The notes beneath the pieces are model-generated. The model was given only the letters and a program-made list of their open reading frames with translations. It did no database searches and was not told the origin of the DNA. Made by a program: the position numbers and the translations under genes. Of a stretch of DNA of 64,000 nt, positions 2,396 through 4,476 are shown one piece after another; position 1 is the first letter of the stretch, and each line of letters begins with the position of its first letter. The DNA comes from Pocillopora damicornis (Eukaryota), in assembly GCF_003704095.1 (NCBI RefSeq), contig NW_020847747.1, positions 620,001-684,000 on the forward strand, written 5' to 3'.

Positions 2396-4476
2396 ATGGA
2401 TGGTCTTACTGCTTTTGTGTCCCGGTTCGACAAGGTAAAGCCACAAGATTCATCAGCCACACAAGTTGATGGTGGCCGAGAGCAGGACAATGCTTCATCT
2501 TCTTCGAGCTTGGTGACTCTTCCATTCAGCATTGCGGAAATTTTGAGCGATAAACGAAATGAGCCAAGGAAAAAGGAAACCGAAGACATCAGTATTGAAA
2601 TGAGACGGTATGCTGTGCAAGGTAGGAGAGAAACAACCAAATAACAGAACATTTCGTCTTTGTTCGCCGTAAGGTTGAATGTATTACTATCTCACTGTAG
2701 TTTAAACTACTTTCAGAATAACTATTTCTATTTTCTAGAAATTAATTCCTAAATGCAAAACGGGACATTTTCCTGTGCCATTGTTATAAACATAACTTGA
2801 GACACTACAAGGAAGTCACTGCGTTCCTGAAATTCTCATCAAAAAGGTTAACGTCTGAAATAATTTATAAATTTGTCCTTATCAAGTAATCTATGGACCA
2901 AAATATGCCAATATAAACTATAATAATAATTATTTATTAATTGTAGATTAAACAGTTCACTGCAATAGTTTATATTGAAAGTCTCAATTTCTACTCAGTT
3001 GGTATAAAACCATCTTACTCCGAGTAACAAGAAAAACAATTTGACTGATGAACTTTTGGGTCAGTCTTACCTCAAGAATTTTCTTATCGATTCTAACAAG
3101 ACTAAACGTATCAATACTCCAGTATTTATAAAGAAAATTTTCTAAACCTTTTGATTCAGCCACGGAGCGAAGATTAGCGTAAAAGAAATGGGAAACTGCT
3201 TTGAGGTTTGGTAAGCCGAGGGATCACTGGACTCTCGGCAGAGAACATTCACATTGAAGCAAGCTTAACGTTCGTCAATTATAAAGTGAGATTACTTAAA
3301 AGCATGTTGCATCCTAGACAGTGCGTATTAGGTTCAGGAAGAACGTTTGAAATAACAGTCCATATCAAATTCGGATGTCTTTCTAAAATACTGATACGCT
3401 TATTTAATATCTGTGTATTCTTTCGGAAGGTTTTGACGAATCACCCAGACGAACAAACCGGTGCAAACCTCCGCGAAACAGGAAAAATTTTACGAGAGAA
3501 CAATTGCGAGAACTGGAGAAACTGTTTGATCAGACACATTACCCAGATGCCTTGACGCGGGAGACACTGGCGAAGAGGATGGGCCTATCAGAAGCTAGAG
3601 TTCAGGTAACTCGCCGAACAGGGTCTTGTGGGATTGTTTTGAAACAAAGCAAGTTCAAAACTGGTTTGATAAGTTGTGGACAAACAAAAATGAATTCAAT
3701 TGCCATCAACTTTCACTAATTCCCTTGGATAAGCACTTACTCACTAGGCCATAGTGTCAAACAAGCACCCGTCTCGAATAAGCGCCTCCCTTCCTCCCTC
3801 ATCTCTAGTTGCAGGGTAACAGGGAAAAACTGTATCCATCGCCACTTCATTTATAACGTTTTAAGCTTCAGCCAGAAGTGAGTTAGCACAGGAGTCTGCG
3901 CCCTCCTTTTAATGGGTACTCCTTCTTTTAGCCGAGATTTTAACTAAGCATCAGCGCGTTTACTCGAGGAAATACGGTATATCACATCAAGGAAAAAAAA
4001 ACAATTGTTAATGACTTGATTTCATCTCACATTTCCAGTACAAAACACAAAATTGAGAGAGGGTACTTGAAACGAGGGGAGAGGAGTAAGACTGGGGCTA
4101 GGTTAGGTGTTCTGATGAAAAGCATGTCACTGTGACAATCCCGCTGATTTATCCACAGATCTGGTTTCAAAACCGTCGTGCTAAAAGTCGTCGGCAGGAA
4201 GGACCGAGTCAGAGGGGCTTCGTTGTCCCGGCAACCCCGACATACAAACCACCAAATCACGTAACTCAGCTACGCCAAGAAACATCTATCACACCATTTA
4301 CCCATGGTGCTTATAGAACTGGGTGTGTTGAGCATCTGTGCATGTGTAACCACGCCAGTTTTGTTACCAGTGTCAGTCAGGTTGATTATAATCGTCAGTT
4401 TAATCAACAAACAAGCATCGAGGATCTGAGACGTAAAGCTCGGTACCACAACTGGGGGGGGCATAACGTACATTGA
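2396..4476 (+). CDS. SHOX: SHOX/SHOX2-like paired-class (Q50) homeobox transcription factor, 3 exons (2396-2621, 3430-3605, 4159-4476), about 239 aa
   Basis: Exons join in frame via GT-AG introns (phase 1, then phase 0 between homeodomain residues 46/47, the typical PRD-class position). Homeodomain [60 protein letters not shown] carries SHOX-diagnostic residues (NFT, LFDx[14 protein letters not shown]). N-terminus [15 protein letters not shown] resembles vertebrate SHOX/SHOX2 MEELTAFVSKSFDQK (recalled). C-terminal [13 protein letters not shown] is an OAR motif. Confidence 0.88.
2525..2545 (+). other. eh1/octapeptide Groucho-binding motif (FSIAEIL) in homeobox exon 1
   Basis: Exact match to the FSIxxIL consensus. 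Confidence 0.8.
3713..3979. mobile_element. Degenerate non-autonomous DNA transposon (MITE) in homeobox intron 2
   Basis: Right end ...TTACTCGAGGAAATACGGTA, internal CGAATAAGCGCC sub-terminal motif, and a weakly matching left end (AATTCCCTTGGATAAGC). Resembles TA-flanked Tc1/mariner-pogo type MITE ends (recalled). Confidence 0.4.
4405..4449 (+). other. OAR (aristaless/paired-tail) domain [15 protein letters not shown]
   Basis: Matches the OAR consensus SSIAxLRLKAKxH at the protein C-terminus. Confidence 0.85.

Follow-up and report, generated by a model that had tools for sequence, protein, structure and literature searches.

The window analysed here, that is, the whole 64,000-nucleotide stretch of Pocillopora damicornis DNA, contains on its forward strand a Shox gene comprising three coding exons and two GT-AG introns (720 nt, 239 amino acids). 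The ATG lies at 2396, 23 codons downstream of an in-frame stop, and the stop codon at 4474-4476. Coding exon 1 (2396..2621) specifies residues 1-75 plus one base and ends at a phase-1 donor; it is followed by intron 1 (2622..3429; 808 nt), whose acceptor, at 3429, is the sole in-frame AG within 3330-3470. Coding exon 2 (3430..3605) carries the homeodomain positions 1-46 (3468-3605). Intron 2 (3606..4158; 553 nt) falls between the homeodomain codons 46 and 47, a position typical of the PRD class. Coding exon 3, with the stop codon (4159..4476), carries the homeodomain positions 47-60, including Q50 and AKSRR (4159-4200), and shortly afterwards the Shox-type [KR]G dipeptide (4213-4218). The likely 3' untranslated region (4477..4682) harbours AATAAA at 4594 and 4661, and one RNA contig stops at 4682, which is a weak hint as to its end.

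The splicing was ascertained with RNA contigs from four runs, each of a different study, aligned to positions 2000-5000: intron 1 is spliced out in contigs of three of the four runs and intron 2 in those of two, so that the complete spliced reading frame proposed in an earlier note on this DNA holds. The cover of the introns by RNA contigs was not taken as retention, because contig depth and strand cannot reveal it. Three independently assembled proteins of 239 amino acids (P0001, P0391 and P0395) each differ from the model by a single residue. Two near-identical proteins (P0392 and P0394) end three residues sooner with a different last residue; their early ends would fit a length variant affecting the run of G that precedes the stop (4453-4460). 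No TAAT-N2-3-ATTA site occurs in positions 1-5100, and there is therefore no sign of autoregulation in that region; repeats close to the gene occur at chance level only.

On the minus strand, from 5014 to about 53700, most of the window is apparently occupied by one very large gene comprising many cysteine-rich repeat exons (a 999-codon frame at 22419-25418 gives a weak, sub-cut-off match to Ephrin_rec_like), a segment near 13000 that likely lies in the membrane, and a long coiled-coil tail. An assembly gap of 100 N (about 53270-53370) lies inside this gene, with near-duplicate exons on either side. The large gene ends 540 nt from the Shox stop, and the two genes converge. Between them (4477-5014), AATAAA occurs on the plus strand at 4594 and 4661, and on the minus strand at 4635. 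From this layout, and from a spliced Shox contig that runs past 5000, the 3' ends of the two genes may overlap, the contigs being strandless. Upstream of Shox (G000:C4382:580001-620000, L021-L024) lie genes with Nas2_N, WD40, RRM and Ig domains, as well as an ARM-like frame. No other homeobox was found on the Shox contig among the 150 scored of 193 candidates, and no homeobox cluster surrounds Shox. Elsewhere in the genome, ten paired-type boxes are gathered in 100 kb (G000:C37:542000-641000), eight of the nine examined being of the K50 type; we take G000:C788:469000-501000 to be an Otp-Rx-Hbn-type trio and G000:C1899:1219000-1312000 an Otx-type group.

The closest named protein is PFX15390.1 of Stylophora pistillata, called 'Short stature homeobox protein' in GenBank/UniRef. 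Among the best 120 of 211 matches, all the best named ones are anthozoan, and full-length relatives occur in Porites, Acropora, Desmophyllum, Actinia, Exaiptasia, Actinostola, Nematostella, Paramuricea and Dendronephthya. Since the nearest relatives are anthozoan and the Stylophora protein is 91% identical, the window belongs to a stony coral, as the earlier note had supposed, likely of the family of Stylophora; the latter is likely another genus or species of that family.

The homeodomain of the coral protein (residues 89-148; Pfam PF00046, 83 bits) is of the paired type with Gln50. Its identity to vertebrate SHOX, previously counted by hand at about 43/60, is 43/60 for each of the 69 vertebrate proteins compared, a set that holds no human record; it is weak evidence alone, because the best non-Shox paired-type homeodomains reach 40/60 identities to the coral gene. 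The family-typical N7, E11, L19, A28 and G39 are all present (position 38 is Met, instead of Leu as in most members). Three of them, N7, L19 and A28, are shared-derived, occurring in 12/12 Shox rows versus, respectively, 2, 2 and 3 of 27 others. Similarly, [KR]G stands five residues past the homeodomain in 18/18 anthozoan and 16/22 bilaterian Shox proteins, versus 0/74 controls. The OAR tail (4408..4452; residues 218-232) is present in a diverged form, which scores just below the Pfam cut-off (20.0 bits with exon 3 and 18.3 bits with the whole protein, versus 20.1) and is in register with orthologues that pass it, such as P0023 at 33.3 bits. In a PDB search, ALX4, PRRX2 and aristaless ranked first, with no SHOX chain among the 24 matches. 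The fold model of the coral protein is of low confidence outside the homeodomain (pTM 0.35), and its first ten residues have a pLDDT of 62.

The N-terminal motif M-[ED]-x-L-x-x-F-V-[ST]-x-(x)-F occupies residues 1-12 (2396..2431), with a low-confidence predicted helix at residues 2-8. The 15-residue start of human SHOX/SHOX2, as given in the earlier note, is indeed that of 67 of the 69 vertebrate SHOX proteins, none of which is a human record, and bird and snake SHOX2 records begin with the same peptide. With a matrix built from the N-termini of 15 named bilaterian Shox proteins, picked for having the motif, the coral start at 2396 scores 22.3 bits, versus 10.5 for the runner-up among the 76,552 six-frame 10-mers of the window and a maximum of 8.5 anywhere in 74 non-Shox homeodomain proteins. 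When searched for in anthozoans, the motif was recovered in 18/19 proteins, at 15-29 bits, the sole miss being the Nematostella isoform X2, whose sister isoform X1 has the peptide. The predicted Nematostella isoforms X2 and X3 both begin without it. The peptide was also found in amphioxus, lamprey, crinoids, Oikopleura, oyster, Lingula and Owenia, and in horseshoe crab, millipede, mite, flies and hymenopterans. Judged from these sequences, it is family-wide (insects, molluscs, annelids and echinoderms) and not specific to vertebrates; hence, the earlier note was right about its presence and wrong to call it vertebrate. Of the 130 new proteins that a representative search yielded, 42 match the strict pattern, the remainder including fragments, variants and non-Shox proteins. 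A search of the ESM Atlas with residues 1-60 returned only unnamed clusters, all with scores below 0.9. The peptide is missing from tardigrade, one rodent (hamster) and two gastropod Shox-like records, and is thus either dispensable in some lineages or mis-predicted there. Groups of unnamed Shox-type proteins (P0039-P0061 and P0343-P0363) have Gln-rich N-termini without the peptide, a homeodomain near the C-terminus and no OAR; they fall within bilaterian Shox in the tree.

A loose pattern requiring neither the Met nor the acidic residue retrieved 228 proteins, which reduce to 67 distinct 14-mers; these variants come from related rows and are not a tally of independent events. In all 67, a Met stands three residues before the Leu, and residue 2 is Glu (62) or Asp (5), positions 3, 5 and 6 being variable; the peptide starts at residue 1 in 206 of the 228 proteins. 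This strict anchoring at Met1 goes beyond what had been noticed earlier. A Kozak G at +4 would equally permit Ala, Gly or Val as the second residue. As these three residues never occur there among the 67 variants, the constraint looks to be at the level of the residue. NatB acetylates proteins that start with Met-Asp or Met-Glu; the Met1 anchoring and the Asp or Glu at residue 2 suggest an N-acetylated docking helix.

A fourth module, absent from the earlier note, is the eh1/octapeptide-type motif FSIAEIL (2525..2545; residues 44-50; predicted short helix at 46-50). A pattern of our own (aromatic-S-I-x-x-I-L, with Asn admitted at the second position after the octocoral sequences had been seen) matches N-terminally to the homeodomain in 19/19 anthozoan proteins (14 with Ser and 5, of the octocoral type, with Asn at position 2), and in 0.1% of shuffles. 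It matches 0/69 vertebrate SHOX proteins and 1/11 other named bilaterians (Owenia), and a Leu-first variant occurs in 47/48 hymenopteran proteins. An eh1 in coral Shox is unsurprising, because the motif is common among paired-like proteins. The eh1 motif recruits Groucho/TLE (PMC4901127, PMC1310626) by binding to the WD40 pore of TLE (PMC4901127); Shox goes unmentioned in the main texts of these two papers. A TLE gene is present in the same coral genome, and the presence of the motif suggests that the ancestral Shox could repress through Groucho. In chordate Shox (P0205, P0285 and P0244), residues of about 20-40 hold a second conserved block, ITYREVL (RTYKEVL in amphioxus). From its eh1-like hydrophobic spacing, this block may be a remodelled eh1, though two alignments are possible.

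A homeodomain tree of 62 rows groups anthozoan and bilaterian Shox (11 rows from anthozoans, and 10 Shox-type rows that are bilaterian or unnamed) in one clade with SH-aLRT 96 and bootstrap 99, Prrx being its sister; it took in 16 of the first 20 loci of the coral genome itself, four loci and one protein without a pattern match being left out. A mixture-model tree of 83 columns and 34 rows again yields the Shox clade (bootstrap 99, SH-aLRT 95) with Prrx as sister, and places the octocoral outside the hexacorals, as expected; it was flagged for bringing together two long branches, those of Prrx and Shox. The outgroup family labels were our own, assigned from automatic names and homeodomain signatures. 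In the topology tests on the homeodomain columns, which are few, the Shox tree is the best and the Alx grouping alone is rejected (p=0.014); Prrx (AU p 0.49), Otp (0.37), Uncx (0.19), Phox (0.14) and Rx (0.085) are not, with 5000 replicates, a number flagged as too low. On the 83 columns, the Shox tree is again the best, and the only family groupings rejected are Alx (0.047) and Arx (0.036). The PRD-class phylogeny envisaged in the earlier note thus supports the Shox clade as the best solution, while its AU tests dismiss few rivals. In the reciprocal search, full-length lemur SHOX failed to set the coral gene apart, which scored 60.4 bits, near-tied below an Otp-type locus at 60.8; such exon-level scores are too coarse for the purpose. 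On the homeodomain positions 1-46, coral Shox is ahead by 32 versus 31 identities.

The 36 other paired-type loci of this genome include no second Shox, and the Otp-, Rx-, Alx-, Arx- and Uncx-type genes are presumably separate genes there, as judged from homeodomain signatures and tree positions. With a Prrx-type query, coral Shox ranks 28th among the 43 matches listed; it does not group with Prrx to the exclusion of Shox, nor does it bear the Prrx homeodomain signature. The orthology is settled by characters outside the tree, since the start peptide is absent from the 74 non-Shox controls, and from all these sequence comparisons the gene is almost certainly the coral orthologue of vertebrate SHOX/SHOX2. 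Together with the start peptide, the two trees support the earlier proposal that Shox, with its three modules (peptide, homeodomain and OAR), is older than the cnidarian-bilaterian split. A sponge Og12/Shox gene found no support: neither 'og12' nor 'shox' occurs in the main text of PMC2959044, and the sponge proteins fall outside the clade in the homeodomain tree. Among the matches listed, many of them unnamed, and the 20 proteins looked up, none is a named Shox from a medusozoan, placozoan, sponge or ctenophore, and this is not proof of absence.

The small identity margin (43 versus up to 40 of 60), the survival of most rival groupings in the AU tests, and the RefSeq labels Rx1-like, RAX2 and PRRX1 given to the Stylophora and Nematostella genes could all be taken to mean that the gene is a member of some other paired-like family (Uncx, Alx, Otp, Rx, Arx or Prrx) and owes its likeness to Shox to chance or convergence. 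This is very improbable, given that both the N-terminal motif and the [KR]G behind the homeodomain are missing from the 74 controls, and that what we take to be the Otp-, Rx-, Alx-, Arx- and Uncx-type genes of this genome are found elsewhere in it. That the locus is bilaterian DNA, contaminating or transferred, has a practically negligible probability: we found nothing in its support. Against it, stony corals, anemones and octocorals all have orthologues, and the gene tree of these agrees with the species tree; ordinary intron-bearing genes surround the locus on an 837-kb contig; and the gene is present in RNA runs of several studies. Less remote, and still improbable, is that the coral gene is an unduplicated pro-orthologue of both Shox and Prrx, bilaterian Shox having kept the peptide and Prrx the eh1. 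It would agree with both trees placing Prrx as the sister of the Shox clade, with no distinct Prrx standing out in this genome (nor, according to the survey tables, in Nematostella), with the eh1 in 4/6 Prrx-type proteins, and with the RefSeq name of the Nematostella gene. The corresponding topology is not rejected on the 60 homeodomain columns (p=0.146), whereas it is on the 83 columns (p=0.044). In addition, seven sites unite anthozoan and bilaterian Shox against Prrx and other families, versus one that unites anthozoan Shox and Prrx, and an eh1 was kept in some bilaterian Shox, namely in Owenia and, in its L-type form, in hymenopterans.

Regarding what was already known, the earlier statement that Shox was missing from early Nematostella surveys proved correct, since the table of Ryan et al. 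2006 gives SHOX as 0 (PMC1779571), and a 2018 table again gives Nematostella no SHOX (PMC6125248). The novelty that the earlier note implied did not survive, a cnidarian Shox with this motif being already documented as far as sequence records go. A 2025 paper (PMC12521223) includes the Shox2 of the octocoral Paramuricea, which starts with the same N-terminal peptide, in its Shox tree and taxon list, and points out that vertebrates are not alone in having Shox; neither 'N-terminal' nor 'OAR' occurs in its main text. Moreover, GenBank/RefSeq Shox names occur, among the matches listed, in five anthozoan genera (Stylophora, Acropora, Actinia, Exaiptasia and Paramuricea). RefSeq also calls the Stylophora gene Rx1-like (XP_022806536.1) and the Nematostella gene 'paired mesoderm homeobox protein 1'. 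Across anthozoan Shox records (P0021, P0399, P0401, P0385 and P0025), its names are RAX2, PRRX1, Rx1-like and PRRX2-like. Such naming may be why anthozoan Shox was overlooked. A Hydra 'SHOX1' is named in PMC4685579, and a Nematostella preprint takes Shox as outgroup (10.1101/2023.04.05.535675); its supplement may hold a cnidarian Shox. The available portions of PMC7535936, PMC2959044 and PMC8303994 contain nothing further on cnidarian Shox. In the full-text literature searched, no paper is devoted to cnidarian Shox, to an eh1 in any Shox or to the peptide (an earlier mention in subscription journals is possible), and the peptide letters or phrases such as 'cnidarian shox' return 0 papers. Nor did that literature hold a paper on the function of the peptide, which agrees with the earlier description of the peptide as poorly characterised. 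The coral gene is thus mostly ordinary, one more anthozoan Shox that was already in databases and once in print.

As to function, we hold it very probable that the locus encodes an intact, spliced Shox orthologue that likely binds TAAT sites and likely represses through eh1 and Groucho/TLE. According to PMC4971310, PMC3885427 and PMC4309068, human SHOX has a nuclear signal in helix 3, binds P2/P3 palindromes as monomer or dimer, and exerts an OAR-dependent activation as well as a context-dependent repression. By analogy with human SHOX, the coral protein would be imported into the nucleus through its helix-3 signal AKSRR (AKCRK in SHOX); its Q50 homeodomain would likely bind TAAT sites, including TAAT-N2-3-ATTA palindromes as monomer or dimer; and its OAR would contribute to activation or to the stabilisation of dimers. 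The eh1 probably recruits Groucho/TLE, leading to the repression of target genes. From conservation alone, the N-terminal peptide would most likely be a short amphipathic helix (Leu4, Phe7, Val8 and Phe11/12) with an acetylated Met1, and we lean slightly towards this helix docking on a conserved cofactor. On this view, peptide, eh1, homeodomain and OAR would all have been present in the ancestral Shox, and chordates would have lost or remodelled the canonical eh1. In its entirety, the proposal that the initial twelve or so residues of Shox form an N-acetylated docking helix, fixed at the protein start since before the coral-bilaterian split and with a conserved partner, while the ancestral eh1 was lost or remodelled in chordates, is put forward only tentatively.

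With similar reserve, the peptide may instead be conceived as a degradation signal of the acetyl-N-degron type, or as a segment that folds back on the homeodomain or OAR and damps DNA binding. The Met1 position and the acidic second residue fit N-terminal acetylation and N-degron logic equally well, and human SHOX is a dosage-sensitive disease gene, as would suit such a device. Published mapping also assigns none of activation, dimerisation and nuclear import to the N-terminus (PMC3885427, PMC4971310). Against a simple N-degron, the conservation extends to Phe11/12, presumably beyond what such a signal needs; against a brake, nothing in the monomer model points to a compact fold beyond the homeodomain.

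As a gene, coral Shox helps to correct the tables of 2006 and 2018 that give Nematostella no Shox, and adds to the cnidarian-bilaterian ancestor one family that the GenBank names and the 2025 tree already implied. What deserves more attention is the N-terminal peptide, which is as old as the family and anchored at the start. A section of a SHOX review names the nuclear signal, dimerisation, the OAR and a CK2 site, and lists no role for the first residues (PMC4971310). If the docking-helix proposal is true, human SHOX and SHOX2 contain an unrecognised functional domain, which would help to interpret the N-terminal variants of patients with short stature. A function of the peptide is open to direct tests and could be of clinical relevance, SHOX being a dosage-sensitive human disease gene.

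Compared with known systems, coral Shox most resembles Stylophora pistillata PFX15390.1, which has the same length and the same four motifs and differs by 20 substitutions. Paramuricea clavata Shox2 (CAB4032863.1) also possesses the N-terminal peptide, an eh1-type motif, a Q50 homeodomain (46/60) and an OAR; it differs in being from an octocoral, and in an OAR nearer to the consensus (33.3 bits). The Prrx family, the sister group in both trees, shares the Q50 homeodomain, the OAR and, in its invertebrate members, the eh1, but it has no N-terminal peptide, a homeodomain identity of 38/60, and none of N7, L19, D21 and G39. The Hydra 'SHOX1' given in the supplement of PMC4685579 resembles the coral protein in its eh1-type motif and in several anthozoan-type homeodomain residues (about 33/60 by eye), whereas neither the N-terminal peptide nor an OAR is visible in the sequence given there. 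Finally, vertebrate SHOX/SHOX2 (Shox/Og12 family, PRD class, Q50) share with coral Shox the N-terminal peptide, the 43/60 homeodomain, the intron past codon 46, the [KR]G behind the homeodomain and the OAR. They differ in having ITYREVL instead of a canonical eh1, an acidic CK2 site ahead of the homeodomain that is not evident in the coral, and Val47 and AKCRK in place of Ile47 and AKSRR; in turn, the coral peptide is one residue shorter, and in the coral OAR an Arg stands in place of the second Leu.
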